From positions 1,500,001-1,532,000 of the forward strand of contig NZ_JAGIOS010000003.1 in the NCBI RefSeq assembly GCF_017876815.1: a stretch of DNA of 32,000 bases. The letters run 5' to 3'. The position numbers were made by a program, and so were the translations under genes. The DNA is from Sinorhizobium meliloti (GTDB lineage: Bacteria > Pseudomonadota > Alphaproteobacteria > Rhizobiales > Rhizobiaceae). The notes beneath the pieces were generated by a model that made no database searches, was not told the DNA's origin, and saw nothing but the letters and a program-made list of their open reading frames with translations. Shown here piece after piece: positions 1 to 21,792 of the stretch. Position 1 is the first letter of the stretch. Every line of letters begins with the position of its first letter.

Positions 1-176
1 GCGTATCCGGAATCGGCGGCCTGAAACTGGATGCGATTTATCGTGCCACCGGGCGCACCACGGGCCTCGTTGCCGGCGAGCATGGCCAGCATGTAATAGG
101 CGCCAAGTTCCCCCTCGATGTAGGTGCCGGCTCCCCCTCGAGCGGCAGGCGCTCCGGAATATCTTGCTTCGTTCAT
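1..176 (-). CDS. Hypothetical protein, N-terminal 58 codons only (gene runs off the left edge)
   Basis: Reverse-strand ATG at 176-174 with GAGGG (183-187) 6 nt upstream, open to the window edge. Translation is MNEARYSGAPAARGGAGTYIEGELGAYYMLAMLAGNEARGAPGGTINRIQFQAADSGY. It is missing from the ORF track because it is open-ended. Family not recognised with confidence. Confidence 0.5.
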   Translation of the reverse strand, partial: MNEARYSGAPAARGGAGTYIEGELGAYYMLAMLAGNEARGAPGGTINRIQFQAADSGY

Positions 177-261
177 AACCTGCCCTCTTTCGAGCAGATA
201 ACTTACGAAATACTCGCGTTAGCTTCAACTTGGGTTCGGTCCAGAGCGGTCATGGTCGCCG

Positions 262-279
262 AGAATTCAAGGGAATTCT
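262..279. promoter_or_regulatory. Perfect 7-bp inverted repeat AGAATTC-AAGG-GAATTCT in the leader of the left-edge gene
   Basis: Read directly from the sequence. Lies 86-103 nt upstream of the ATG at 176. Could be a hairpin or an operator; function unknown. Confidence 0.25.
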
Positions 280-352
280 ACGCAGATCTCTAGCGTCGTG
301 AATTCCGCTGTGATCGACGTCCGCTTCCAGGCGTCGGTGTGGTTGCTCCAAC

Positions 353-541
353 GACCGAAATGGGCGCACACCCGCCGTCCGTGCTAACGAATTTATTGTC
401 CGCTTCGGGTTACTAAATCGCGTCGGTAGCCAAAGTGCACGGTGTTTGAAGGGAGCCGTTCTTCACGAGCGGCGAACGGCTTGTTGCTAGGATGTTCACG
501 TTCTGGGCCAAGAAGATCGCATAATGTATCGTCAGGAACAC
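353..541. repeat. Copy 1 of a ~190-bp non-coding repeat (conserved arm plus dif-like core)
   Basis: Hand alignment to 20227-20410 plus 21604-21613 gives about 85% identity with five 1-2 nt indels. Outer flanks are unrelated. No reading frame is conserved between the copies. Confidence 0.85.
514..541 (+). other. dif/cer-like candidate Xer recombination core (copy 1)
   Basis: Reads agatCGCATAA-TGTATC-gtcaggaacac. Positions 518-529 (CGCATAATGTAT) are identical to 12 consecutive nt of E. coli dif (GGTGCGCATAA-TGTATA-TTATGTTAAAT). The right arm is diverged. Confidence 0.5.
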
Positions 542-615
542 TCGGGGCTCAACGAACCACCAAACTGGATAGTAACATAGCATTTCAGCCGGCGGGGTCC
601 GCAGTTCGAGTCCTT

Positions 616-708
616 TCAAGACCCAGAAGGCTCGACGAGCAGTCCACGCATCATAGCATCGGTGATGGCACCGGTTCTGATGAAGCCAACCTTCTCAGGT
701 AGTGGCAT
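616..708 (-). pseudogene. Truncated remnant (30 codons) of a ProC-like / NAD(P)-binding oxidoreductase gene
   Basis: ORF MPLPEKVGFIRTGAITDAMMRGLLVEPSGS* starts 2 nt after the GntR stop. It resembles the N-terminal Rossmann segment (IGFIGTGAI...) of pyrroline-5-carboxylate-reductase-like proteins, with G to R inside the glycine motif. It ends where the repeat-associated DNA begins. Confidence 0.45.
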
Positions 709-710
709 GA

Positions 711-1430
711 TTACTCCGCCGCGGCTCGCGAACCAAGGGAAACGTCGGTCGTGTAGTTTTCGCGCAGGAATGCGATGAAATTGTCTTGGAACTGCCGCGT
801 GTGGGCGTGCGCCAGTTCGTCAGCGCGCTCGACGTCCTTGGCCCTGATGGCTTCGAGCATCAGTTCGTGCTCGTCGGTCAGAAGATAACCGTCGCCGGTG
901 CGCTCCAGGTATTCGAAATGCAGATGCAGCATGCGCTGCCCCTGGTTCAAAAGCCGCTCGTAGAACGAGGCGAGATAGGGATTCTTGCCTGCATAGGCGA
1001 TGGCCATATGAAACTGCTTGTTGGCTTCCGACATCTTCAGATGCACGTTGGTTTTCACCGCGGCCTCGAATTCCTTCTGCCGTTTGGCGATGATCTTCAG
1101 GTCCGCGTCAGTGCGTAAGGCCGCGGCAAGGCGTGTGTTCATGCGCTGGGCGACGTCGAGGGCCTCGACGTATTTCGGGAAGCTCGCCACCTCTATTGGC
1201 GCGACGATGGTGCTGCGGTTGGAGAGCGTCACCACGAGGTCTTCGCCGGCCAGCCGGATCAGCGCCTCACGCACCGGTGAGCGCGACATGTCGAAGCGTT
1301 CCGCGAGTGTGGTCTCGTCGAGCAGTTGGCCCGGCGGCAGGCTCAGCGCTAGGATCTCGCCCCGGAGCGTCTCGTAGACATTTTTCCAACCGGTGCCGCG
1401 CACCCGTTTCGATTCAAGTTCCTCAGACAC
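711..1430 (-). CDS. GntR-family (FadR/FCD subfamily) transcriptional regulator, divergent from the transporter/catabolic operon
   Basis: 239-aa ORF with an N-terminal winged-HTH (LDETTLAERFDMSRSPVREALIRL) and a C-terminal all-helical FCD-like domain. GTG start at 1430 with AAGGGA 5 nt upstream. Confidence 0.9.
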   Translation of the reverse strand: MSEELESKRVRGTGWKNVYETLRGEILALSLPPGQLLDETTLAERFDMSRSPVREALIRLAGEDLVVTLSNRSTIVAPIEVASFPKYVEALDVAQRMNTRLAAALRTDADLKIIAKRQKEFEAAVKTNVHLKMSEANKQFHMAIAYAGKNPYLASFYERLLNQGQRMLHLHFEYLERTGDGYLLTDEHELMLEAIRAKDVERADELAHAHTRQFQDNFIAFLRENYTTDVSLGSRAAAE

Positions 1431-1500
1431 TTACGTCCCTTTTCGTCAGCGGCGGGCATTGGGCCAGAAAATCAGGCCGTCATCAATCGTAAAATTTCTG

Positions 1501-1546
1501 CTTGACTTTGTCGACAGCGAGACGACATATTTTTACCAGTCGACAC
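1501..1546 (+). promoter_or_regulatory. Candidate promoter (CTTGAC-N18-ACATAT) with two GTCGAC palindromes (1510-1515, 1539-1544), likely GntR operator(s)
   Basis: Lies in the divergent intergenic region 1431-1621. ttGTCGACag and caGTCGACac fit the short GT..AC dyads used by FadR-type GntR regulators. No experimental support. Confidence 0.35.
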
Positions 1547-1621
1547 GGAGCCGACAAAAAACGACCGCAAGAACGGCCGAAGCCGACGGGTGGAACGCGC
1601 TTACAGCGCTTAAAATGGGGA

Positions 1622-2461
1622 ATGCACATGCTTTCAAAGATGATGACGTCCGCTCTGCGGGCGACGGCGGCGCTCGCCCTGACGTTGGGTGTTTCGACTG
1701 CGACTGCCTCGGCTCAGACGGCAGAAGGCTATTGGCAGGGCGTTCAGAAATCCGGCACGCTGCGCTGCGGCGCCGCGGTTGCCCCGCCCTATGTGATGCG
1801 TGATCCGGCCAGCGGTGAGTATTCCGGCTTCTTCGCCGATCTCTGCCGCGAATTCGCTGAAGTGCTGCAGGTGAAGCCAGAATTCGTCGATACGACTTGG
1901 GACAACATTGTCGCGGGGCTTCAGGCCGGCAAATGGGATCTCTCCCTGGCGCTGAATCGCACGCCGGCGCGCGCCATGGCGGTGCAGTTTTCGATCCCGG
2001 CGATGGAGTACCAGATCTCTCTCGCGTACAACAAGGACAATCCGAAGATTCCGGCGGGCGCCACCTCGGTTGCCGACATCGACAAGGCCGATGTTACGCT
2101 CGCCGTCATGTCCGGCACGGCCCAGGACAAGGCGATTTCAGCCGCAGTCAAAACCGCGACGATCCTGCGTCTTCCGACTAATGACGAAACGCGTCTCGCC
2201 GTGGTCTCCCGTCGGGCCGACGTTCTCGTCGATGCCTCAGATACCAACCAGTTGTTCACCCAATCGAACCCGGATTGGGCGGTTGCGATGAACCCGACGC
2301 CGGCCCTCGCAAAGCAGGGCGTTGCCTTTGGCCTGCCGCATCAACTCTCCGCCGCGGATGTTGAAGTGGTCAATATCTTCCTCGAAGAGCGGGTCGCGAC
2401 CGGCCACGTCGAGGAACTGATCCGCAAGGCCGTCGACCAGGTCCTGAAGGCCAGCAACTGA
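1622..2461 (+). CDS. Polar amino-acid ABC transporter substrate-binding protein (family 3 SBP), signal peptide
   Basis: I trimmed the track ORF 1502..2461 to ATG 1622 (or 1628), which gives MHMLSKMMTSALRATAALALTLGVSTATASAQ as a signal peptide. SBP_bac_3-like body. Confidence 0.85.
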   Translation: MHMLSKMMTSALRATAALALTLGVSTATASAQTAEGYWQGVQKSGTLRCGAAVAPPYVMRDPASGEYSGFFADLCREFAEVLQVKPEFVDTTWDNIVAGLQAGKWDLSLALNRTPARAMAVQFSIPAMEYQISLAYNKDNPKIPAGATSVADIDKADVTLAVMSGTAQDKAISAAVKTATILRLPTNDETRLAVVSRRADVLVDASDTNQLFTQSNPDWAVAMNPTPALAKQGVAFGLPHQLSAADVEVVNIFLEERVATGHVEELIRKAVDQVLKASN

Positions 2462-2468
2462 ACCGTGC

Positions 2469-2492
2469 CGGGGCCGCCTCCCGGCGGCTCCG
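2469..2492 (+). promoter_or_regulatory. Intercistronic GC-rich stem-loop after the SBP gene
   Basis: cggggccgcc-tccc-ggcggctccg forms a 10-bp stem with one G-U pair. No clear U-tract. This is the usual position for SBP/membrane-component stoichiometry control. Confidence 0.45.
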
Positions 2493-2522
2493 CTCCCTGT
2501 CTTAAGGAGGAGAGTTGGGACG

Positions 2523-3293
2523 ATGTCGGACACAGCTGCGCTGGTCAAAATCGAGGGACTGCACAAGAGCTATGGCGGCGTCATACAGGTGCTGCAAGGC
2601 CTGGATATCGAGATGAAGGCCGGCGACCGTGTCGTCGTCATCGGCCCCTCCGGCGGTGGCAAGTCGACTCTTCTTCGGGTGTTAATGGGGCTCGAGCAAA
2701 TCGATAGCGGCTCGATCCTCTTCGGCGGTAAGCCCTACATCTCCGCAAACGGCTCCGGCAAGACCGTCATCGATGCCAAGGTGCGACGCTCGATCGGCAT
2801 GGTGTTCCAGCACTACACGCTGTTTCCGCATCTCGACGTGATCAGTAACCTGATCCTAGCACCGACGAAGGTGAGGGGCGAAAACAAGGCGGTAGCTCGC
2901 GAACGGGCGATGGCGCTGCTCACCCGCTTTGGACTGGCGGCCAAGGCCAATGCCTATCCGGCCCAGCTATCAGGCGGCCAGAAACAGCGCGTGGCGATCG
3001 CCCGTGCCCTGATGCTCGATCCAAGGCTGATGTTGTTCGATGAGGTGACCTCGGCGCTCGATCCCGAGCTCGTCGCCGAAGTCGAGCAGGTGATCATGCA
3101 GCTCGCCCAGCAGCAGATGCCGATGGTCATCGTTACTCACGACATGTGGTTCGCCAAGAACATTGCCTCCCGCGTGATCTTCTGCGCCGGTGGCGTGGTC
3201 GTCGAGGATGGTCCGCCGGAACAGGTGCTGGGGGCGCCGAAAGAGGAACGCACCCGCGAATTTATCGAGCGCGTCTTCCACATCAAACACTGA
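2523..3293 (+). CDS. Amino-acid ABC transporter ATP-binding protein
   Basis: Walker [10 protein letters not shown], signature LSGGQKQR, Walker [22 protein letters not shown] upstream. Confidence 0.95.
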
Positions 3294-3304
3294 GGAGCGA
3301 CGTC

Positions 3305-3973
3305 ATGAATTACAGTTTCGACTTCGCGTCCGTGTTTCGCAATTTCGGACCGCTCTGGGAAGGCCTCTGGGTTACGGTTCAACTCACGATCGCGGCCAAC
3401 GTCATTGGGCTGACGCTCGGTTTCCTGCTTGCACTGCTCGTCATGAGCCGCTGGGCAGTGATACGGCTCCCTGTCACCCTCTTCATCGAATTCTTCCGCT
3501 GCACGCCGGCGATCATCCAGATCGTCTGGTTCTTCTATTGCGTCCCGATGCTGTTCAATGTTTTCCTCGGCTCGGTGACGATGGGCATCATGGCGCTTGG
3601 CCTCAATCTCGCGGCCTTCAATGCCGAGGCCTATCGCGCCTCGATCCAGGCTGTTCCCCGAGAGCAGCTGGATGCGGGTATAGCGCTCGGCCTCAACCCG
3701 TTCCAACGGATCCTCTACATTGTCCTGCCGACGGCGGTCCGCAGTTCAATCCCGGTCCTGCTCACCAACGGGATCGGCATCTTCCAACAATCCGCACTGG
3801 TCGCGATCGTGGCCGTTCAGGACCTAATGTATCAGGGCAAGACACTCGCAACGCAGACCTATCGTCCGATCGAAACCTTCACCATCGTCGCGCTCGTCTA
3901 TTTTGCCCTGTCGTTTCCGGTCTCGCAGATCGTCGGCTATCTGGAACGCCGCCGCGAAGCCATGGCAAGCTGA
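3305..3973 (+). CDS. Amino-acid ABC transporter permease (His/Glu/Gln/Arg/opine family)
   Basis: I trimmed the track ORF 3146..3973 to ATG 3305, which has GAGGAG upstream. 222 aa, multiple TM segments, EAA-like motif region. Confidence 0.9.
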   Translation: MNYSFDFASVFRNFGPLWEGLWVTVQLTIAANVIGLTLGFLLALLVMSRWAVIRLPVTLFIEFFRCTPAIIQIVWFFYCVPMLFNVFLGSVTMGIMALGLNLAAFNAEAYRASIQAVPREQLDAGIALGLNPFQRILYIVLPTAVRSSIPVLLTNGIGIFQQSALVAIVAVQDLMYQGKTLATQTYRPIETFTIVALVYFALSFPVSQIVGYLERRREAMAS

Positions 3974-3984
3974 GGAGACCAACG

Positions 3985-4653
3985 ATGATGAGCTTCAACT
4001 TCGCGATCGTGCTCAAGTTCCAGGAGGCTCTCCTTCTCGGCCTCTGGACCACACTCAAGCTCACCCTGATCTGCATCGTGCTCGGCTGCGTTCTCGGCTT
4101 CCTGCTGGCGCTTGCCCGCACATCGAAAAGAGCCATGCTGCGGGGCGTTTCCGGCATCTACGTAGAATTCTTCCGCGGCACACCCGTGCTCGTGCAGTTG
4201 TTCTGGATCTTCTTCTGCCTGCCGCTGATCCTCGGCGTTGAACTCTCCAACATGGCGTCGGGCATCATTGCCCTTACGCTCTACATGGGCGCGATCAGCA
4301 GCGAGACGTTCCGGGCATCGCTCAAATCCGTTGGCCGTGAGCAACTGGACGCATGTGTGGCGCTGGGGCTTTCTCCTTGGGTCCGGACGACGAGCGTCGT
4401 TCTCCCGCAGGCGGTGCTGCGCGCGGCACCCACGCTGCTTTCCAATTGCGTCAGCCTCTTCAAGGAAAGCGCGCTCGTCTCGGCCGTCGGCATGGCGGAC
4501 CTGATGTTCGTTGGCCAGAACATCTCCAACAACACGGCGCGGCCGGTCGAGGTGCTGACCGTCGTCGCGCTGATCTACTTCGTCATCGCCTTTCCGCTAA
4601 CGCGTGCCGTCACGGTTGTCGAACAACGCATTCTCAAGCGGCTGGCCGTCTGA
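3985..4653 (+). CDS. Amino-acid ABC transporter permease (second subunit)
   Basis: ATG 3985 with GAGGAG upstream. 222 aa, paralogous to 3305-3973. The N-terminal part of track ORF 3190..4653 is an out-of-frame overlap. Confidence 0.9.
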   Translation: MMSFNFAIVLKFQEALLLGLWTTLKLTLICIVLGCVLGFLLALARTSKRAMLRGVSGIYVEFFRGTPVLVQLFWIFFCLPLILGVELSNMASGIIALTLYMGAISSETFRASLKSVGREQLDACVALGLSPWVRTTSVVLPQAVLRAAPTLLSNCVSLFKESALVSAVGMADLMFVGQNISNNTARPVEVLTVVALIYFVIAFPLTRAVTVVEQRILKRLAV

Positions 4654-4689
4654 ACGCGCCAACCGCCTGGACCCAAAATGGAGACCCTC

Positions 4690-5568
4690 ATGAAACTCTC
4701 AGGCGTCATGCCCGCACTCGTCACCCCCTTCGATGCCAAGGGCAAGATCGACTTCAAGGCATTGGAAAAGCTGCTTGTCCACCTGCGCGACGCGGGGGTT
4801 ACAGGCTGGGTGCCGAACGGCTCGACCGGGGAATATTTCAGCCAGTCGACGGCGGAGCGTCGGGAAGTTCTCCAGGTCGTCAAGGACTTCGCCAAGCCGG
4901 GTGAAATTTTGATCGCCGGCACGAACGCACCTGCCACGCGCGAAGTCATTGAACAGACCGCGATGGCAAAGGAGATCGGCTACGACACGGTCCTGCTCGC
5001 GCCTCCCTTCTACACACGCCCGACCCAGGAAGAGCTCATCAAGCATTACGAGACCGTGCTTTCCGCAGTCGATGTCAATCTCGTGCTCTACAGCTACCCC
5101 GCAAAGGATGGCTCGGACATCAGCTTCGAACTGATGGATCATTTCGCGGACAATCCGCGCGTTATCGGCATCAAGGAAAGCTCCGGCGTCTTGCAGCGCG
5201 CGATCGACATCGCAAGCCGCTATGAGGGTAAGATCCAGCTCGTCAGCGGGTCGGACGACATCGCGCTCGATTTCATGTTCTGGGGTGCGGACAGCTGGAT
5301 CTGCGGCCCGTCCAACTGCATGGCCAAGGCCTGCTGCGATCTCGACCGAACCTACAAGTCGGGGGATTTGGACAAGGGCCGCGAGATGATGAAGACGCTC
5401 TACCGCGCGATGAATATCCTCGAGTCCGGCAAGTTCGTCCAGAAGATCAAATATGGCTGCGAATTGCAGGACCTGCCGGTCGGCGAGTGCCGCGCGCCGC
5501 TTGGGCCCCTCACGGATGACGAAAAGGCCGAGTTCCGCGCCGCTATGGAACCGATCCTGAACTGGTGA
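4690..5568 (+). CDS. DapA/NAL-family class I aldolase-type enzyme; in context likely 1-pyrroline-4-hydroxy-2-carboxylate deaminase
   Basis: MKLSGVMPALVTPF... is a typical DHDPS-family N-terminus, with GSTGE and IKES (Schiff-base Lys) motifs. GGAGA lies 5 nt before ATG 4690; the alternative ATG 4678 lacks an SD. The function is inferred from neighbours. Confidence 0.85.
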   Translation: MKLSGVMPALVTPFDAKGKIDFKALEKLLVHLRDAGVTGWVPNGSTGEYFSQSTAERREVLQVVKDFAKPGEILIAGTNAPATREVIEQTAMAKEIGYDTVLLAPPFYTRPTQEELIKHYETVLSAVDVNLVLYSYPAKDGSDISFELMDHFADNPRVIGIKESSGVLQRAIDIASRYEGKIQLVSGSDDIALDFMFWGADSWICGPSNCMAKACCDLDRTYKSGDLDKGREMMKTLYRAMNILESGKFVQKIKYGCELQDLPVGECRAPLGPLTDDEKAEFRAAMEPILNW

Positions 5569-5576
5569 GCCGCCAT

Positions 5577-5599
5577 GGCCGGGCGGCTCGCGCCCGGCC
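5577..5599 (+). promoter_or_regulatory. Intercistronic GC hairpin (ggccgggcg-gctcg-cgcccggcc)
   Basis: 9-bp perfect stem between 5568 and 5629. No U-tract. Confidence 0.35.
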
Positions 5600-5628
5600 G
5601 ATCTTGAAGCCTGACGGGAGAGCGCAGC

Positions 5629-6861
5629 ATGACCACCGTCGTTATCGGCGCGGGCATTATCGGTACGACCATCGCCTACGAACTGCAAAAGCGTGGGCGG
5701 CGGGTCGTCCTGCTCGACAAGGGCGAGGTCGGATGTGGCGCGTCCTACGGCAACATGGCGTCGATCGCCGTGACGGAGTTCATGCCGGCCTCGCGCCCGT
5801 CGATCTGGAAACAGATCCCGGGCTGGATGCTTGATCCGGAAGGACCGGTTCGGGTCCGCCCCGGTTACATGCCGAAACTACTTCCCTGGTTCGCTCGCTT
5901 CGTTGCGGCGTCTCGGCCCAGCAAGCTGCGTCAACTTGAGGCCCAGGGGGCGGTTCTTTGTAAGCGCGTCTATGAGGACCTGCTGCCGCTGCTGCGCGAG
6001 ACGGGACTGGAGGGTGAGCTGACGGAGGAGGGCTGCCTCTCGCTCTATAGCAGCGAGGCGGAGTTCCGCGCCGACCGCGAGCATATCGAAATACTGGAGC
6101 ATTTCGACTTACCGCACCGGCGGCTGACGGGCACTCAAGCGCGGGAACTGGAGCCGGAACTCTCCGAGAGCATTGGTATCGCCGTGCTCTTGCCACAAAA
6201 CCGGAGCCTTCGCGACCCGTTTCGCCTTGTGCAGAGCCTTGCGCAGCGCTTCACCGCGCTCGGCGGCGAGTTTCGGCGCGGTGCGGTGGGCGGTTTCGAC
6301 CGCTCCGACCGCATCTCCGCCGTCCGGCTTGTCGGCGGCGATCCTATTGCCGCCGATGAGGTGGTGATCTGCGCTGGGGCTCATAGCGGCTTGCTGTCGA
6401 AGATGCTGGGCGAACCGATGCCGCTCGAAACCGAGCGCGGCTATCACACGCAGATCATGTCGCCCGGCATTTCCATGCGTCACTCAATCATCTGGCCTGC
6501 CCGGGCCTTCATGGTCACACCGACGGCGGGCGGCATCCGCGTCGGCGGAACGGTCGAGATGGCGGGTCTCGATGCCGCACCCGACTATCGGCGTTCAAAG
6601 ATTACCGTTCGGCGGGCGCAGACGGCGTTGCCCAACCTGCGCTGTGAGGACTTTTCCGAGTGGATGGGCCATCGCCCGGCCTTCCCGGATACCGTTCCAG
6701 TCATTTCGGCATCGGCGAAGACACCAGGTGTCTTCTACGCCACCGGTCACGGTCACCTGGGCGTCACCTATGCGGCAACCACCGCGCGGCTGATGGGCGA
6801 TCTGATCACCGGCGCGACACCGCCCGTCGATATACGTCCCTATCGCATCGACCGGTTTTGA
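5629..6861 (+). CDS. FAD-dependent oxidoreductase (DAO / D-amino-acid dehydrogenase family); likely D-hydroxyproline dehydrogenase
   Basis: N-terminal VVIGAGIIGTTIAYEL dinucleotide-binding motif, 410 aa. The context is a hydroxyproline-type pathway. Confidence 0.85.
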   Translation: MTTVVIGAGIIGTTIAYELQKRGRRVVLLDKGEVGCGASYGNMASIAVTEFMPASRPSIWKQIPGWMLDPEGPVRVRPGYMPKLLPWFARFVAASRPSKLRQLEAQGAVLCKRVYEDLLPLLRETGLEGELTEEGCLSLYSSEAEFRADREHIEILEHFDLPHRRLTGTQARELEPELSESIGIAVLLPQNRSLRDPFRLVQSLAQRFTALGGEFRRGAVGGFDRSDRISAVRLVGGDPIAADEVVICAGAHSGLLSKMLGEPMPLETERGYHTQIMSPGISMRHSIIWPARAFMVTPTAGGIRVGGTVEMAGLDAAPDYRRSKITVRRAQTALPNLRCEDFSEWMGHRPAFPDTVPVISASAKTPGVFYATGHGHLGVTYAATTARLMGDLITGATPPVDIRPYRIDRF

Positions 6862-6873
6862 AAGGAGTTCTCG

Positions 6874-7572
6874 ATGACCGATAAGGTTTGCCTGATCACC
6901 GGTGGCGGCAGAGGCATGGGCGCGGCGGTGGCGCGTGAGATGCACGCGCGCGGCTACAAGCTCGTCCTGATGTCGCCTTCGGAAAATTGCGAAACGCTGG
7001 CCGCAGAGCTCGGCGGCATCGCCCGCCGTGGCGTGGCGCAAAGCGCTGCTGATCTCAAGGGCATCGCCGATCTCGCCATGTCCACTTATGGCAGGATCGA
7101 CGCGGTACTGAACCATACCGGCCATCCCCCAAAAGGCGACCTTCTCGAGATCACCGACGAAAACTGGGATCTCGCCAATGACATGATCGCCAAGTCGGTC
7201 ATCAGAATGGCACGGCTGGTGACACCGGTGATGGAGGCGCAGGGCGGTGGTTCGATCGTCAACATCACGACTTATGCGGCGTTCGAGCCGTCACTTTGGT
7301 TTCCTGCGTCCTGTGTCTATCGCGCCGGGGTCTCCTCCTTCACCAAGCTCTATTCGGACCGCTACGGTCCGAAGAACATCCGCATGAACTGCCTTCTCCC
7401 AGGCTTCACCGACAGTCTCGATGTCGGCAAATTTGCAGATCTGACAGCGCTCAAGAGGATCGGCCGGGTTGAAGAACAGGCCAAGGCTGCGGCTTTCCTG
7501 CTCAGCGACGATTCCAGCTACATCACCGGCCAGAGCCTTCGAGTCGATGGCGGGCTGACGCGTCACATGTGA
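6874..7572 (+). CDS. Short-chain dehydrogenase/reductase family protein (atypical active-site spacing)
   Basis: TGGGRGMG cofactor motif and Rossmann fold. The expected YxxxK reads YRAGV, with no Lys at +4. Confidence 0.8.
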   Translation: MTDKVCLITGGGRGMGAAVAREMHARGYKLVLMSPSENCETLAAELGGIARRGVAQSAADLKGIADLAMSTYGRIDAVLNHTGHPPKGDLLEITDENWDLANDMIAKSVIRMARLVTPVMEAQGGGSIVNITTYAAFEPSLWFPASCVYRAGVSSFTKLYSDRYGPKNIRMNCLLPGFTDSLDVGKFADLTALKRIGRVEEQAKAAAFLLSDDSSYITGQSLRVDGGLTRHM

Positions 7573-7579
7573 GGACACC

Positions 7580-16003: not shown

Positions 16004-16440
16004 TCACTGGATGCGCTCGATGCGCAGCGGGAATTCCCCAGGGACGTGAAGCGCTTCATAGCCGTCTTCGAAGCGACCGAGGCGGACGAGGCCCGGATGC
16101 TTGTAGTCGGCGTAGAACATCACGAGATTTCCCCAGGGCATGTAGTAGCAGAGGTCGTATGGCCGCTCGTCGGAGAAGGGTCCGTGTCCTTCGACCGTCA
16201 GTTTGCGTGGCAGGTATGCGATCTTCTCGTTCGATCCGAAGCCCTTGATCTCGAGATCGAGTGGAAGCAGGAGGCGAAGTCACGGGCGGACGGATTGTCG
16301 TAAAGTGTCGCCGTCATCGTGTGGTGGCCGAAGGTAAGCCTTATCTTCACGTCAGTCGGCTCCTGTTGTTGGGTTCGGTGCGACCCAGGCCTGGCAGTTG
16401 CAAGGACGGCAGCAACTAGCACCAGGGTCCGGCGCGACAT
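16004..16440 (-). pseudogene. Cyclophilin-like-fold small protein gene with a 1-nt frameshift
   Basis: Frame A gives MSRRTLVLVAAVLATA...VKIRLTFGHHTMTATLYDNPSARDFAS. Frame B continues LLPLDLEIKGFGSNEKIAYLPRKLTVEGHGPFSDERPYDLCYYMPWGNLVMFYADYKHPGLVRLGRFEDGYEALHVPGEFPLRIERIQ*. The switch is at 16263-16275, inside a C run. Confidence 0.65.
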
Positions 16441-16457
16441 GAAGGGCGGCCGATAGC

Positions 16458-17645
16458 TCATGAGGCTCTCCTGACGGTGTACCAGGCGGCGATCGACGCG
16501 AGAGACGAGCCGACAAGCAAGGCTGCGCTGAGGGCAAAGGCGGACCACCAACCGACCGTGTCGAAGAGGAGGCCGCCGATCGATGCTCCTGCCGTGATCG
16601 CGAGCTGGATGACCGCGACCTGCAACCCTCCTCCCGCCTCGGCGTCATCGGCGAGATATCGGCTGAGCCAGGTTCCCCACCCGACAGGAGCGGCAGTCCC
16701 GAAGAGGCCCCAGCCAACGAGTGCGGCGAACACGGGAAGCTCCCTGTCTCCAAAAGCGATCAGGAACAAGGCGATTCCTGCCATCACCAAGGGTATGACA
16801 ACAAGGATGCTGAACAGACGCTGCCTCAGCAGTCTACCGATCAACCAGGTGCCACCCGCCCCAGCGAGGCCCATCACGAGCAGGCTGAGCGAAAGCGTCT
16901 CGATGCCGAGATCAGTTACCTGCTCCAGGAAAGGACGCAGATAGGTGAAGAGCGCGAACTGTCCCATGAACAGGAGCAGGATCGCCATCATCCCCGCGAT
17001 GACAGGGGGTTGCCGGAGCAACCTCAACACGTTCGGCGAAGACTGGCCGGCCCGGACAGGCAGCGAAGGAAGGCTGATAAACTGCCAGAGGATCGCAAGA
17101 AGGCTCACCGGAACAACGAGGAAGAACGCGCCTCTCCAGCCGACGTATGCGCCCAGGAGGCTGCCGGCCGGAGCCGAGATGGTCGCGGCGATCGCATTCC
17201 CGGCGTTGAGCAGGGCCAGCGCTGCAGGCACCTGGCTCCCTGATACAAGCCGCATGACGATCGCTGTCGACATGGACCAGAAGCCTCCGATCGAGATGCC
17301 AAGCAGCGCGCGGCCGATCATGAGGACGGGATATGTTGGCGCGCACGTCACGATAATGCCGGAGACCGTCAGAAGAGCGGTCAGTCCGAGAACCACGATC
17401 CTCCGGTCGAGCCGACGGGTGATCGTCGCGATGAAGAGGCTTGTGATGACTGCGAAGACGCCGGAGATCGAGATTGCCTGCCCGGCCTGTCCCTCGGAGA
17501 TGCTCAGGCTCGACGCAATGGGTGTCAGAAGACTGACCGGCATGAACTCGGAGGCGATCAGAACGAAGACGCAAAGCGTCATGGAGAATACTGCTCCCCA
17601 AGCGGCCTTCTGGCTCTCGATGCCATCTTGAAAGGTTATGCTCAT
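16458..17645 (-). CDS. MFS transporter
   Basis: I trimmed to ATG 17645 (MSITFQDG...). 395 aa with about 12 hydrophobic segments. Divergent from the LysR gene. Confidence 0.85.
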   Translation of the reverse strand: MSITFQDGIESQKAAWGAVFSMTLCVFVLIASEFMPVSLLTPIASSLSISEGQAGQAISISGVFAVITSLFIATITRRLDRRIVVLGLTALLTVSGIIVTCAPTYPVLMIGRALLGISIGGFWSMSTAIVMRLVSGSQVPAALALLNAGNAIAATISAPAGSLLGAYVGWRGAFFLVVPVSLLAILWQFISLPSLPVRAGQSSPNVLRLLRQPPVIAGMMAILLLFMGQFALFTYLRPFLEQVTDLGIETLSLSLLVMGLAGAGGTWLIGRLLRQRLFSILVVIPLVMAGIALFLIAFGDRELPVFAALVGWGLFGTAAPVGWGTWLSRYLADDAEAGGGLQVAVIQLAITAGASIGGLLFDTVGWWSAFALSAALLVGSSLASIAAWYTVRRAS

Positions 17646-17775
17646 GTCATGGATCCTTGCGTGCTCGCGTTTCGCGACTTGCAGGAGAAAGATATTGCCG
17701 AGGGACTTTGCCAACAATCCGTGCTAATCCGCATGAAGTTATCGATACGGAACATCAATAGGAGCCTAGCTGGTC

Positions 17776-18669
17776 ATGCTGCGGGAGGATGTGAAGGATC
17801 TGTTGTGGTTCATCGAGGTGGCGAGGGAGCAGAGCTTCACCAAGGCCGCGGCCACGCTCGGCACCTCCCAGTCGACCCTCAGCCATACGATCAAGCAGTT
17901 GGAGGCGCGGCTGGGCGTCCGCCTGCTGACGCGGACGACCCGCAGCGTGGCAACAACGGAGGCTGGCGAACGCCTGCTACAGTCGCTTGCTCCAAGATTC
18001 GAGGGGATCGAGGCAGATCTTGCAGATCTGGTGGCTTTCCGGGAGAAGCCGTCAGGCACTGTGCGCCTGACGCTATCAGATCATGCTCTCCAGACAACGG
18101 TCTGGCCTAAGCTCAGCCGCATCCTGGCCGATAATCCCGACGTCAAGGTCGAGCTCTACAGCGACAACGGGATGCGCAACATCGTTGAGGAGCGTTTCGA
18201 CGCCGGCGTCCGGCTCGGCGAGAGCGTCGACAAGGACATGATCGCCGTGCGTATCGGCCCCGATTGGCGGCTGCGCGCCGTAGCCTCCCCGGAATATCTC
18301 GCCAGGCACGGGATCCCCGAGACCCCGCAGGACCTCGTCAGCCATGTCTGCATCAACACGCGCCAAGCCACTTGGGGCGGATTCTATGCCTGGGAGTTCG
18401 AGAAGGACGGGAGGGAGCTTCGGGTCCGGGTCGAGGGGCAGCTCAGCTTCAATTCCTCGATCTCCCAGATCGACGCCGCCGCCAAAGGATACGGGATCGC
18501 CTACATTCCGGAGGACCTCGTGGAAGAACACATCCAGGTGGGAGCGCTGCAGGCTGTCCTCGACGATTGGAGTGAGCCGTTCGCGGGATACCATCTCTAT
18601 TATCCCAGCCGACGCCAGATGTCCCCCGCGATGGCACTGATCGTCGATGCTCTGAGACATCGGAGCTGA
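17776..18669 (+). CDS. LysR-family transcriptional regulator
   Basis: N-terminal HTH (FIEVAREQSFTKAAATLGTSQSTLSHTIKQLEARLGVRLLTRTTR) plus a LysR substrate-binding domain. 297 aa. Confidence 0.92.
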   Translation: MLREDVKDLLWFIEVAREQSFTKAAATLGTSQSTLSHTIKQLEARLGVRLLTRTTRSVATTEAGERLLQSLAPRFEGIEADLADLVAFREKPSGTVRLTLSDHALQTTVWPKLSRILADNPDVKVELYSDNGMRNIVEERFDAGVRLGESVDKDMIAVRIGPDWRLRAVASPEYLARHGIPETPQDLVSHVCINTRQATWGGFYAWEFEKDGRELRVRVEGQLSFNSSISQIDAAAKGYGIAYIPEDLVEEHIQVGALQAVLDDWSEPFAGYHLYYPSRRQMSPAMALIVDALRHRS

Positions 18670-18744
18670 ACACGCGCCGCTTGCTTGTGTGAGCCTTCCA
18701 CGGCAGAAGCCCTATCTGCCGCTCCGGCTAGTTCGTCTCGGAGA

Positions 18745-19239
18745 TCAGGTGTAGGCTAGAAGCCGTCCGGCGAAGATGATGCCCGTCCATGCGGTCAATG
18801 ATATTGCTGCCCCGAGGCGGGCGGCGACGGGAGGCACCGCAACATCCGTCCAGTTATCCACGCTCCGGTAGATGCCGCCGTGGAAGACAGCTACATTGAC
18901 GCCGGCAAGAACTAGCAGACCGAACTTCCATGGTGCGGCTCCGGCGCTGGCGATCACAGTCGCCTGCGCACTCATCAGTGCGACGCCAGTTGTAGCGGCG
19001 ATGGCCAGGCCCGCGTGGGAGACCGGGAGCAGATAGCGCGCCGTTGTGGTGACGGAAACGGTACGGTGTCCCAAACCCAGAAGGCGGAAGTCGAAGGTGA
19101 AAGCGGGACCGACCAGAAGAGCGATCCCAATGATGTGGATGGCCTCAAGCACGGGATAGAGGTAACGGGCATTCCGTACCACATCGCCGAGGGCCGAACT
19201 CTGCAACATCATCAGCAGAGAGCTGAGCAGATCAAGCAT
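18745..19239 (-). CDS. Integral membrane protein of unknown function (about 4 TM helices)
   Basis: 164 aa and strongly hydrophobic. It lies downstream of 19349-19906 on the same strand, so they are probably one operon. Confidence 0.65.
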   Translation of the reverse strand: MLDLLSSLLMMLQSSALGDVVRNARYLYPVLEAIHIIGIALLVGPAFTFDFRLLGLGHRTVSVTTTARYLLPVSHAGLAIAATTGVALMSAQATVIASAGAAPWKFGLLVLAGVNVAVFHGGIYRSVDNWTDVAVPPVAARLGAAISLTAWTGIIFAGRLLAYT

Positions 19240-19348
19240 ATCCGTTCACGTCCATTCCGAGGGTGATGGCGCAGGTGAAAGGATCTTCCCACGCCTGCTG
19301 AGATGACGGCGAGCAGGATCGCCTCACGCCGTCTGTAGCGGCCGAAGC

Positions 19349-19906
19349 CTACTTCGGAAGGGGGGCTCGTACCGGAAGCGTGTTGCCCAGCACTTGGTTC
19401 ACCGGCACATTGTCATCGCCGTACCAGAACACGACCGGACGAAACAGGCCGTCGTTCGTCCGATTGATGTAGCCGACGGCCCGGAAGCGCTCGCCGATCT
19501 TCAGCGCACGGCCCAGGCCCCACCTGCCCGACCACGCAGGAGGAGCAATGATGATTTCCAGCTCCTTATGGGGACCTTTATATGAGCGAGCAGCATCGAC
19601 TCGGCTGCTATCCTCAGGATCTTGCAACTCCTCCGGAATCCTCAGATCAGGAGTGTCGGCAGGCATGCTGCTGTCCAGTGTGACGTCGAACTGGGAGTGC
19701 GGGTTCCCCCAGACGCCGTCCGAAGAAACCGTTCCCGAGATATAAATGAGGCGATCGGTCTCGAAGCCAGGCCATCCATGATGCGCGGCAGCAGGAGACA
19801 CCGGACCCAGAACGGCTCCAAGCGCGATCAAGCCGGCAATCCCTGACGTGGTTAGCTGCCGTAGTCCCCTAATGACACTAGGCGTATTAAAGATCATGCT
19901 TTTCAT
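19349..19906 (-). CDS. Secreted protein of unknown function (DUF6152-like; mature N-terminus HHGW)
   Basis: I trimmed to ATG 19906, which has AGGAG upstream. The signal peptide ends ...PVSPAAA before HHGWPGFETD. The family assignment is from memory and tentative. Confidence 0.6.
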   Translation of the reverse strand: MKSMIFNTPSVIRGLRQLTTSGIAGLIALGAVLGPVSPAAAHHGWPGFETDRLIYISGTVSSDGVWGNPHSQFDVTLDSSMPADTPDLRIPEELQDPEDSSRVDAARSYKGPHKELEIIIAPPAWSGRWGLGRALKIGERFRAVGYINRTNDGLFRPVVFWYGDDNVPVNQVLGNTLPVRAPLPK

Positions 19907-20226
19907 CTGGCGCTCCTTCCTTGCTGCACGCGTCATCGCGCTGCGCGGCATCGGATGCGAAAGGAGATATCACTGCGTGGCGCGCCCGATTAGCTGCCGT
20001 AGATCGCATGTGCTTATTGGAACGGGACATAAATGGGCGCGAACACATGCGAGGTGTAATCGGCGTCGGGCGACCTTAGCTGTCACCCGCCCTTTGCTTC
20101 CACTCTGAAACATCGTGAGCAACGGCCCTCGGAGGCAGTATCGCCCTTTAACAATGCCGGACCGGTTGAGAGAAAGTCGATCAGCACCGAATGCTCCTGT
20201 CGGGCGGGCGCGATAATGGCGTCTAT

Positions 20227-20410
20227 GACCGACATGGGGCGCAAACCCGCCGTCCCTGCGTAACGAATTGATTGTCCGCTTCGGATTACCAAATCGTGTC
20301 CGAAGCCAAAGTGCACAGTGATTGAAGGGATCCGTTCTTCACGAGCGCGTTGGACGGCTGGTTGCTAGGATGTTCACGTTCTGGGCCCAACGAGACCGCA
20401 TAATGTATCA
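20227..20410. repeat. Copy 2 of the ~190-bp repeat (arm, left core arm and spacer); the remainder is at 21604-21613 beyond the IS
   Basis: See the alignment to 353-541. The core reads agacCGCATAA-TGTATC-a[IS]atgggaacac. Confidence 0.85.
20403..20410. repeat. 8-bp target-site duplication ATGTATCA (left copy; right copy at 21596-21603)
   Basis: Identical octamers lie immediately outside both inverted repeats. Confidence 0.9.
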
Positions 20411-21595
20411 GGCCCTTATCAACCAAAGACAGCGACTGCTGATTTGACGATGATCCCACCATCCGGACTTCTGCAGTTGACGGCCGGTCGCGGCGCGAAA
20501 GATTTGCAGCAATTGCAGCGCCGGCGGCACTCGCGACCACAGGGTTTCATGCGTTCCCTGCCATTTCGGGTTTTCCGAACTGCCTGGCCCGTCACAATGC
20601 GCTGTGACCAGCGGAAACCGATCTCGTGGAAATACAGGTCGGCGTGCTGCGGGCTGATATGATGAAAGACACCGGCAATTGTGCGGCGGACGCGGGCATT
20701 GAAACCTTCGACCGAATTGACATGAACGGCGTCACGAACGTATTCGCGGCTGGAGTGCTTCACGGTGTCATGCCTGGCATAGTTCTCGCCAAGGGCCATG
20801 AACGCTGTCGCCTCATCGCTCATCAAATAGGCGTCGGGGTCGATCTGCGCTTCGGCCGCGCGCGCCGCTGCACGGAGCGAAAGACCAGTCACCACCGCAG
20901 CACGCGCGTCACCGGCCGGAGTGCCGGGCGTGACGTCATCTGGCCGTTGAACGATCACCATGACAGGCGTCTTCTGCGTATTCGGCAGACCTTTTCGGCC
21001 TCGTCCAGGCGGTGGATCGTTCGGATTTATTCTTGCTCGCCCACCGAGGTAAAAATGGTCGATCTCCACCGTGCCATCGAGCATGTGCTCGCGCGCCGCC
21101 ATGAGGCGCAGCGCGTGTCCCATCCGCCAGGCCGTCGGTTGGCTTACCCCCAGAGCCTCGGCCAGACGCACCGAGGACAAACCTTTATCCGACTGCAGCA
21201 TCAGCCACATGCCCTTCAGCCAGACACTCAAAGGAAGCTTTGTGGAATGCAGCGGCGTGTGTGTCGTCACCGTAAACTGGAACCGGCAATCGCTGCTGGA
21301 GCATTGATAGAGACCGGGACGCGCACGCCGCATGCCCATATCGCGCCCGGCGATCGCGATCGAGCGTTTGTAACCACAGGCAGGGCAAACTCTCCCACCC
21401 GGCCACACCATGCTTTCCAGCAACCGCCGACACTGCTCCTCATCGCGAAACGCCACGACCATATCTTCCGCGGTCCGAATGTTGGTAAGCGCTGCAAGCA
21501 TCTCCGACATTCTCATCTCCTTCGGATCATGCCCGAAGAATCGCACGATAGCCCTTGAGCATCAAGCTTTTTGCTGTCTTTGGTTGATAAAGGCC
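20411..21595 (-). mobile_element. IS1595-family insertion sequence, 1185 bp
   Basis: 23-bp terminal inverted repeats, 22/23 matching: ggcccttatcaaccaaagacagc at 20411-20433, and its complement at 21573-21595. 8-bp TSD. A single transposase ORF with a Zn-ribbon and an ISXO2-like DDE region. Confidence 0.9.
20419..21510 (-). CDS. IS1595-family transposase (possibly frameshifted near the C-terminus)
   Basis: Start MSEMLAAL at 21510 with AAGGAG 6 nt upstream. Contains CPACG...CSSSDCRFQFTVTTHTPLHSTKLPLSVWL, the transposase Zn-ribbon. The stop codon lies inside the left IR. Confidence 0.85.
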   Translation of the reverse strand: MSEMLAALTNIRTAEDMVVAFRDEEQCRRLLESMVWPGGRVCPACGYKRSIAIAGRDMGMRRARPGLYQCSSSDCRFQFTVTTHTPLHSTKLPLSVWLKGMWLMLQSDKGLSSVRLAEALGVSQPTAWRMGHALRLMAAREHMLDGTVEIDHFYLGGRARINPNDPPPGRGRKGLPNTQKTPVMVIVQRPDDVTPGTPAGDARAAVVTGLSLRAAARAAEAQIDPDAYLMSDEATAFMALGENYARHDTVKHSSREYVRDAVHVNSVEGFNARVRRTIAGVFHHISPQHADLYFHEIGFRWSQRIVTGQAVRKTRNGRERMKPCGRECRRRCNCCKSFAPRPAVNCRSPDGGIIVKSAVAVFG

Positions 21596-21792
21596 ATGTA
21601 TCAATGGGAACACAGCGTCGGCCTTGGCCGGGGTCCCTACGCCCGCCTGTTGCTTACCATTGGGAGAACGCTGTCACCAGCCTAACCCGACGTCGCGCGA
21701 AGGCCCTCTAGCTCGCAAGTTGCAAAAGAGCAGTGCGCGACGGGGCACACGAATGAAACTGATCGTTCCCGCGTTCGCATGGCGCCAGCCCA

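Follow-up and report, generated by a model that had tools for sequence, protein, structure and literature searches.

The window analysed here, a stretch of 32,000 nucleotides from Sinorhizobium meliloti, carries two directly repeated non-coding elements, and each of them is probably a Xer-type site-specific recombination site by which gene blocks are shuffled on symbiotic megaplasmids, the recombinase being inferred. We hold with considerable confidence that the elements serve site-specific recombination, whichever enzyme acts on them; their dependence on Xer specifically is favoured more modestly. The strongest evidence for the site-specific reading comes from natural recombinants, in which the DNA on either side of the element has been exchanged between strains.

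The repeat pair in the window

The sequences at 353-541 (copy 1) and at 20227-20410 plus 21604-21613 (copy 2) had been proposed to be paralogous, and the pair is real. Between 353-~541 and 20227-20410 the identity amounts to 86.9% over 183 columns (MAFFT, blastn), with four or five indels of 1-2 nt, and the same pair was found independently, at 90% identity, by a repeat search of the window. The outer flanks are unrelated, as had been stated, with no alignment to the left or right of the block. A larger duplication that would include the neighbouring GntR genes was ruled out: the proteins encoded to the right of each copy share only 25% identity and their DNA does not align, so the pair is not part of such a duplication. 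On the right, the block ends precisely at 541, a terminus common to every family member (see below). On the left, weaker family conservation extends ~40 nt further out, to ~317 in copy 1 and ~20186 in copy 2; this is the long form of the element, ~225 nt, to which both window copies belong. The features are as follows.

317..513, + strand: upstream ("accessory") region of copy 1, long form, from family alignments; 353-513 clearly conserved, 317-352 weakly
514..524, + strand: XerC-like arm of copy 1, AGATCGCATAA, from comparison with dif and the PWM
525..530, + strand: central (putative crossover) region of copy 1, TGTATC, 6 bp, where the parental type switches
531..541, + strand: degenerate XerD-like arm of copy 1, GTCAGGAACAC, the sharp right end of the family
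542..20185, no strand: segment between the direct sites, ~19.6 kb, candidate exchangeable block
20186..20392, + strand: upstream ("accessory") region of copy 2, long form, from family alignments
20393-20403, + strand: XerC-like arm of copy 2, AGACCGCATAA
20404-20409, + strand: central region of copy 2, TGTATC, followed at 20410 by the first base of the XerD-like arm
20411..21595, - strand: insertion sequence of the IS1595 family, 1185 bp; its ORF matches DDE_Tnp_IS1595 (1.5e-33)
21604..21613, + strand: remainder of the XerD-like arm of copy 2, (A)ATGGGAACAC

The split of copy 2 by an insertion sequence, with the repeat resuming at 21604-21613, is correct as first described. The element has the terminal inverted repeats GGCCCTTATCAACCAAAGACAGC and is bordered by an 8-bp target duplication, ATGTATCA, at 20403-20410 and 21596-21603. 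Most strains are without it, and in these single-piece matches run across the copy 2 site. After removal of the insertion the core of copy 2 reads AGACCGCATAA-TGTATC-AATGGGAACAC; the uninterrupted orthologue in R14 (L028 24865-24889) reads GACCGCATAA TGTATC AATGGGAAC. The insertion lies between the central region and the XerD-like arm, and because it parts the one from the other, copy 2 in the window is certainly inactive.

The segment 542..20185 is constant across 22 pSymA records; the DNA to the left of copy 1 varies among strains. According to the annotation of the orthologous stretch in R14, the segment holds GntR and amino-acid ABC transporter genes, catabolic genes (including those of DapA-like, proline-racemase and aldehyde-dehydrogenase types), an MFS transporter gene and two hypothetical genes.

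A plasmid family with a common right end

The possibility of further copies had been raised from the window alone. In a collection of plasmids, blastn finds the element at 914 places in 235 Rhizobiaceae plasmid records, which belong to Sinorhizobium (129), Rhizobium (93) and Ensifer (13) and to no other genus. Replicons of the S. meliloti pSymA type hold 9-18 places each and most other plasmids 1-3, many rhizobial plasmids of 150-800 kb among them. A scan with the exact pattern in one genome per species gives 21 loci, again in these genera only and none of them from S. meliloti itself. All copies stop at the same point, ...GGAAC, beyond which their flanks are unrelated; a common end point had been expected for the family and is now observed directly. 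Neither of the conditions set for refuting the preliminary description holds: the block does not belong to any known IS, MITE or gene, and its places are more than two.

The extent of conservation to the left differs among the copies. Distant ones retain only the right-hand ~63-95 nt, which corresponds to window 448/477-539; the distant Rhizobium copies in the plasmid BLAST keep only positions 138-200 of the query, i.e. window 477-539. Conservation is widest at ~445-513, above all at 477-513; it peaks at the core end and then stops. The 70-225 nt of sequence shared by the family lie exclusively on the XerC side, where the long form has ~195 nt ahead of the XerC-like arm, and nothing is conserved past the other arm.

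The core resembles one half of dif

The 28-bp block with which the family ends (514-541) is AGATCGCATAA-TGTATC-GTCAGGAACAC. The dif site of the S. meliloti chromosome is GGATCACATAA-GATAGA-TTATGGAACTA, and that of pSymA consists of the XerC arm AAATCAGATAA, the spacer TCAACA and the XerD arm TTATGGAACTA (PMC13342612, Suppl. Data 2c). The pSymA site, AAATCAGATAATCAACATTATGGAACTA, lies at 546 kb, and the central regions of dif on the chromosome, pSymA and pSymB are GATAGA, TCAACA and CGCATG, respectively (PMC13342612). The site of A. tumefaciens is TAATCGCATAA-GATATA-TTATGGAACTT (PMC2731167), a plasmid site of R. etli is ATATCGCATAA-TCTAAT-TTATGGAACCG (PMC10132070, Table 8), and the XerD arm of dif in Rhizobiales is TTATGGAAC (PMC13342612, PMC10132070). 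The XerC-like arm of copy 1, AGATCGCATAA, is identical to the S. meliloti chromosomal arm GGATCACATAA at 9 of 11 positions, and ATCGCATAA within it recurs unchanged in the dif arms of A. tumefaciens and of the R. etli plasmid.

The family consensus comprises the XerC-like arm (A/G)ATCGCATAA, the central region TGTATC and the degenerate XerD-side arm NNNNGGAAC. Almost every Sinorhizobium and Ensifer copy has TGTATC, and the Rhizobium copies have TGGATC. None of the three S. meliloti dif sites has this shared central region, and therefore the family should be compatible with itself and not with dif. The right arm does not match the consensus of the XerD-binding arm, TTATG(G/T)NAA.., of which only the outer GGAAC is kept. 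This motif stands in the dif register (the outer half of a XerD arm, 6+4 bp away), which makes the spacer exactly 6 bp. Among the ~38 copies taken into the core listing, some at overlapping loci, the outer GGAAC is conserved and the four inner positions are variable (GACT, GTCA, AATG, ACCC and others).

A dif PWM was built from 15 reference Rhizobiales sites. The core of copy 1 is its top match in the 32-kb window, with 15.4 bits in total, 16.4 bits for the XerC half-site and -1.0 bits for the XerD half-site. The latter value is low because the inner TTAT(G), invariant in 15 of 15 reference sites, is absent from the XerD-side arm, its TTAT having given way to the four variable positions. On the same matrix true dif sites obtain 27.7-38.3 bits; shuffled windows give a mean of 9.4 bits and a maximum of 18, reached by 1 of 30. 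With up to 3 mismatches allowed, a degenerate dif pattern has a single match in the window, namely the copy 1 core (0.01 expected by chance). Judged by sequence alone, the site would be only half a dif. Unlike a match from a free scan of 32 kb, the position of this core is fixed in advance by the sharp boundary of the family.

The poor right arm, which at -1.0 bits does not resemble a XerD arm, leaves some room for a dedicated tyrosine recombinase other than Xer, whose gene would lie at another place on the plasmids or on mobile blocks; the resemblance to XerC arms would then stem from common ancestry of the recombinases or from chance. Rhizobial plasmids do carry recombinases of their own, such as the plasmid-borne IntA of R. 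etli with its sites attA and attD. We nevertheless find such an enzyme rather doubtful: the left arm is nearly identical to the XerC arms specific to this lineage, GGAAC keeps the dif register, and no recombinase gene is consistently adjacent to the copies in the annotations and ORFs of the loci examined. This absence fits an enzyme encoded by the host. The IntA site itself was rejected as a candidate, its 23-bp palindromic att, TCCGATAAGCATTACTTATCGGA, having no resemblance to the core.

Natural recombinants across strains

Both window copies had been noted to sit at breaks in gene content. A comparison of strains bears this out: the flanks of both copies differ between strains, and synteny breaks in or at the element. 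As can be seen from marker mapping, copy 1 is a chimera. On its left side, as far as the final base of the XerC arm, 24 of 24 markers follow SM11-285k; on its right side, where the XerD-like arm begins, 34 of 34 follow R14-c1 (R14/SM11-348k). The switch between the parents is hence confined to the 6-bp central region TGTATC. Window positions 1-352 are 100% identical to the left flank of the copy at 285.9 kb in pSmeSM11c of SM11, and the element of copy 1 through ...CGCATAA-TGTATC is of the type of this copy as well. The following GTCAGGAAC, together with the flank and 19.5 kb, corresponds to the copy at 348.3 kb in SM11, found also in R14, 1021 and other strains. The two parental copies are direct repeats in SM11, and therefore the window strain has the appearance of an SM11 that has lost the ~62 kb lying between the two.

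In SM11 itself an identical segment of 1.96 kb ends in the element at 285.9 kb and at 90.7 kb, the latter copy of the segment being interrupted by an insertion of ~2.8 kb. The duplicates part directly after TGTATC, into AACAGGGAC... and ACCCGGAAC....

In AK76 the sequences of copy 2 are found at two places. At 205.8 kb its left flank, upstream sequence and XerC arm are followed by a new arm, AAAAGGAAC, and by a relB-type antitoxin gene; at 276.0 kb its arm AATGGGAAC and right flank stand behind a different, short-form member of the family. This structure is the signature of ~70 kb integrated between two direct hybrid sites. The switch point is bounded here only to 14 bp, CGCATAA+TGTATC. Strain ml59 and strains of the GR4 type show further left or right partners at copies 1 and 2, the switch not being resolved in GR4 and ml59. 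In all cases the right flank keeps its XerD-like arm, and the left flank keeps its upstream region and XerC arm. Mosaic upstream regions were not seen among the recombinants compared. One rearrangement, in RRI128, has its breakpoint at the left margin of the long form instead of the core and remains unexplained.

These products bear on the possibility that the family is an ordinary dispersed intergenic repeat, similar to RIME or Sm repeats, at which RecA-dependent homologous recombination takes place and whose likeness to dif is coincidental. S. meliloti holds hundreds of intergenic repeats of unknown function (RIME, MOTIF, Sm-1 to Sm-5), and chance could yield the 15.4 bits of the whole site in a 32-kb scan for dif. 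However, homologous exchange between repeats of 85-90% identity would be expected anywhere in the 95-225 bp and would leave mosaic upstream regions, whereas the sole fully mapped switch is narrowed to 6 bp, and in no case does either side mix the two types. Conservation that peaks and stops at the core end, the lack of palindromic structure and the 16.4 bits of the XerC half alone, at a position preset by the family boundary, also speak against an inert repeat, which we regard as unlikely. It should be kept in mind that both parents were identified for one chimera only (copy 1), that the independent events are few (about five) and come from related strains, and that homologous recombination cannot be excluded for each event taken singly. 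The location of strand exchange within the central region is an inference from natural products and has no biochemical test behind it.

Conservation at the level of DNA

The block had been taken to be non-coding and to be conserved at the DNA or RNA level. The former is confirmed: the best frame is open for only ~27 codons and is shifted by indels in copy 1, variable sites show no excess at the third codon position, and the ORFs overlapping the element have no match in Pfam. On these grounds a protein-coding remnant (the frame ending ...MFTFWAKKIA*) was ruled out. Of the latter only the DNA part can be kept. Rfam 15 gives no match at the gathering threshold and no meaningful one at E<=10 (best E-value 1.3), and neither strand folds more stably than shuffled sequences do (z-scores of -0.3 and +1.3). 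RNAalifold applied to 17 core and 8 long copies on both strands finds no compensatory pairs, with energies of -5.3 and -3.6 kcal/mol. An RNA element was thus ruled out by Rfam, by single-sequence folds and by alignment folds of the core and long forms. A scan for sigma-70 promoters and terminators yields nothing inside the element; sigma-54, NifA UAS, RpoE2, FixK, nod-box and parS motifs were compared by eye and none fitted. Neither copy has terminal inverted repeats, the flanks are without target duplication, and the phage collection contains no match to the element, by which a phage origin was ruled out. Since there is no RNA family or fold, reading frame, promoter or terminator, inverted repeat or phage relative, conservation must be at the level of DNA.

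Some observations in strain 1021 could be taken in favour of an RNA gene, a cis-regulatory RNA or a small peptide (from the frame ...ARLVARMFTFWAKKIA*). A mapped transcription start lies ~78 nt upstream of one copy on the + strand, the annotated hypothetical ORF SMa0575 overlaps this copy, and in many copies of the family the frame ending in TAA is open for ~27 codons. The supplements of sRNA surveys hold nothing for the 1021 copy. With no Rfam match, covarying pairs or terminator, with folding at the level of shuffles, and with the frame shifted in copy 1 and devoid of third-position bias and Pfam matches, such a function seems extremely improbable to us.

The right boundary is sharp and constant and the left extent varies between long and short forms, as might be found if the block were the terminal piece of a mobile element (the end of an IS or transposon, or a MITE) that inserts beside GGAAC-type targets and has its terminus at the right end. 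The element of SM11 moreover closes a repeated segment of 1.96 kb. Nevertheless, terminal inverted repeats, target duplications and an associated transposase are all missing, and the 579-aa ORF of the SM11 repeat is a fragment of a NACHT/STAND-type NTPase and not a transposase, by which the end of a 2-kb mobile element was ruled out. Furthermore, everything to the left of both window copies is exchanged between strains, unlike an insertion between contiguous flanks. A mobile-element end is therefore considered very unlikely.

Proposed mechanism

If the copies are Xer-type sites, as we suppose, the chromosomally encoded XerC and XerD, or a close paralogue, would bind two copies at their cores. 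Assembly of the synapse would be aided by the upstream sequences, probably together with accessory proteins, and strand exchange would take place inside the central region. From directly repeated copies the block between them would be excised as a circle carrying one hybrid site; in the reverse reaction such a circle, or another plasmid, could integrate at any compatible copy. The copies would form a private set that recombines with each other and not with dif. By analogy with cer, psi and CTXphi, the combination of a strong XerC arm, an accessory sequence upstream and a poor XerD arm would be in keeping with an FtsK-independent pathway, with XerC exchanging the first strands. The sequences themselves show the family, its boundary, its dif-like core and layout, and the recombinant junctions; XerC and XerD as the enzymes and activity of the sites at the present day are inferred. 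A replicon with 9-18 active sites should be destabilised, and therefore many of the copies may be relics.

The observed layout, with conserved sequence on the XerC side only, is that of the accessory sequences of cer and psi; an accessory role, i.e. the binding of accessory factors by the upstream region, is inferred from this analogy. In FtsK-independent plasmid Xer sites (cer, psi), ~200 bp of accessory sequence flank the XerC-binding site (preprint). No binding motif for accessory proteins (PepA with ArgR or ArcA) was recognised in the upstream region by eye, only short direct repeats. In the copy 1 region GTCCGCTTC occurs twice, at 319 and 398, and TTCACG was seen twice in the upstream region by eye in the family alignment.

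Comparison with known Xer systems and repeats

The closest layout is that of cer (ColE1) and psi (pSC101), which likewise combine a Xer core having one good and one poor arm with an accessory sequence of ~200 bp by the XerC-binding arm; the rhizobial long form has ~195 nt there. In cer and psi this sequence is required, and both sites, when directly repeated, recombine without FtsK. The 6-bp spacer is shared with psi. Many of the smaller rhizobial plasmids hold just 1-3 copies. In contrast, the weak arm of cer is that of XerC and in the rhizobial sites it is on the XerD side; the accessory regions have no sequence similarity to the rhizobial upstream region; and pSymA has 9-18 dispersed copies instead of one site. 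The rhizobial products are exchanges of unrelated flanks and not merely monomerisation.

Like the pdif sites of Acinetobacter, the rhizobial elements are multiple dif-like plasmid sites bounding gene blocks that recur in differing surroundings. Both kinds of site can have toxin-antitoxin genes beside them (parDE and relB-like genes in rhizobia). Insertion sequences target the XerC side of pdif, and they are found on this side in rhizobia too, where one is an element of the IS110 family. However, pdif are bare 28-bp sites with canonical XerD arms, whereas the rhizobial sites have a long upstream sequence and a degenerate XerD arm. The orientation of pdif alternates as inverted sites (C/D ... 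D/C), unlike the pairs of the window, SM11 and AK76, which are all direct repeats, and the blocks measure 1-5 kb on small plasmids as against tens of kb on megaplasmids.

IMEX (CTXphi, TLCphi and the gonococcal genetic island) use the recombinase of the host and a dif-like site and have no integrase of their own; the rhizobial sites are taken to be alike. In TLCphi, too, attP is without a proper XerD arm. What is found in AK76 and SM11 resembles the integration of large segments between two direct sites. The difference is that IMEX enter the dif of the replicon itself, whereas the rhizobial sites are scattered, their central TGTATC differs from dif and no phage relative is found.

The annotated intergenic repeats of S. 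meliloti are RIME, MOTIF A/B/C and Sm-1 to Sm-5. They resemble the present family in being dispersed, non-coding and of unknown function, and some of them are transcribed. Those described in the literature consulted are palindromic, REP-like and mainly chromosomal; in contrast, the rhizobial plasmid family forms no stable palindrome, is most abundant on pSymA and has a dif-like core at its end.

Implications

Literature searches for dif-like and Xer sites in rhizobial plasmids brought up only single canonical dif sites per replicon, besides work on Acinetobacter, IMEX and cer/psi, and no account of dispersed sites of this kind. The dispersed, probably Xer-type sites of rhizobia therefore appear to be undescribed; that the family bears one of the labels Sm-1 to Sm-5 is not ruled out.

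Few parts of rhizobial genomes vary as much as symbiotic megaplasmids such as pSymA, whose mosaicism is usually put down to insertion sequences and homologous recombination. It is possible, and we offer it only tentatively, that rhizobia possess a Xer-driven system of gene-block exchange through private half-dif sites, a megaplasmid counterpart of the Acinetobacter dif modules, in which circles of tens of kb and plasmids are integrated, excised and swapped, and that megaplasmids of the pSymA type were largely assembled, and are still remodelled, at such sites. If this were true, blocks of catabolic, defence and symbiosis-related genes could be gained, lost and exchanged precisely by a recombinase, and there would be an additional route for the fusion of plasmids. 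To our knowledge, dif modules have so far been essentially a story of antibiotic resistance in Acinetobacter; the idea would be extended to plant symbionts and to much larger blocks of DNA. The elements would also be natural Xer sites that join cer-like upstream sequences with a degenerate XerD arm. The sites predict where variants of pSymA should break and could serve as landing pads in engineering.

Genes and insertions next to the copies

Several further observations concern the immediate surroundings of individual copies. In ml59 a large serine recombinase is encoded 2.7 kb from a copy and probably belongs to an unrelated island. In E. adhaerens the IS110-family element directly abuts the XerC-like arm on its outer side, and in 1021 and R14 the end of a related insertion sequence occupies the same position. 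Toxin-antitoxin genes (parDE, relB-like) adjoin the XerD-like side in two cases.

Insertion sequences at the family sites

Copy 2 of the repeat family (window ~20186-20410 plus 21604-21613) is interrupted by a complete insertion sequence:

20411-21595, IS1595-family insertion sequence, 1185 bp, with a transposase of 375 aa on the minus strand

The element is bounded by terminal inverted repeats GGCCCTTATCAACCAAAGACAGC and flanked by an 8-bp target duplication ATGTATCA (20403-20410 and 21596-21603). At this site it is found in SM11, RU11/001 and one further strain, and it is missing from most pSymA records.

Insertion sequences of another kind are located at the XerC-like arm of the dif-like core. 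On E. adhaerens p1 an IS110-family element (L006 3169-5010; Pfam matches DEDD_Tnp_IS110 and Transposase_20) sits precisely at the outer edge of this arm. A related IS end adjoins the same position of another family copy in 1021 (L001 2246-2270) and in R14 (L028 3152-3176). The shared position of these ends suggests that family sites are specifically targeted by an IS110-type insertion sequence.

Flanks of the family sites

Toxin-antitoxin genes directly adjoin the XerD-like side of a family site in R14 (parD/parE, L028 3245-3840) and in AK76 (gene of a RelB-family antitoxin, L036 1793-2098). Toxin-antitoxin modules are likewise typical cargo of Acinetobacter dif modules.

In S. meliloti RRI128 (L035 ~2540-2560) the left flank of copy 2 is replaced, with copy 2 itself and the flank to its right both intact. 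The replacement begins at the left boundary of the ~225-nt conserved variant, the long form (~window 20186-20215), and not in the dif-like core. This breakpoint is not explained by the model in which the family represents Xer-type recombination sites.

Genes around copy 1

Copy 1 (window ~317-541) is neighbored by the following reading frames:

1-177, minus strand, NACHT/STAND-type NTPase ORF, 579 aa (the window begins inside it; L030 385-2124 in SM11)
616-708, minus strand, short ORF MPLPEKVGFIRTGAITDAMMRGLLVEPSGS followed by its stop codon, adjoining the stop of the GntR gene

The 579-aa ORF weakly matches PDC-M54A (8e-12), a candidate defence protein of PADLOC, as well as Avs4. Part of this ORF, along with the element, makes up a 1.96-kb segment that apparently occurs three times on SM11 pSmeSM11c (two copies were examined, the third place being derived from BLAST of window 1-352); one of the copies is split by an insertion of ~2.8 kb.

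The short ORF, which is also kept in R14 and ml59, resembles by eye a ProC-type gene (pyrroline-5-carboxylate reductase) reduced to an N-terminal stub.

On ml59 pSymA the core at the copy 1 site is preceded only by a strongly diverged family member, and ~2.7 kb to the left of this site lies a recombinase gene:

L029 419-2488, large serine recombinase, 689 aa, domains Resolvase, Recombinase and Zn_ribbon_recom

Its region may be a separate integrated island.

Upstream region and transcription

The region on the XerC-arm side of copy 1 contains GTCCGCTTC twice, 79 nt apart (window 319-327 and 398-406), as well as an 8-bp inverted repeat AGCCGTTC/GAACGGCT (454-461 / 474-481). It is possible that these repeats are protein-binding sites.

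The published transcription-start map of 1021 pSymA places a plus-strand start at 305867, ~78 nt upstream of the family copy 305945-306039 (region 305867-306179; L001 ~3923-4235). The same copy is overlapped by SMa0575 (305892-306179), a hypothetical and probably spurious ORF.
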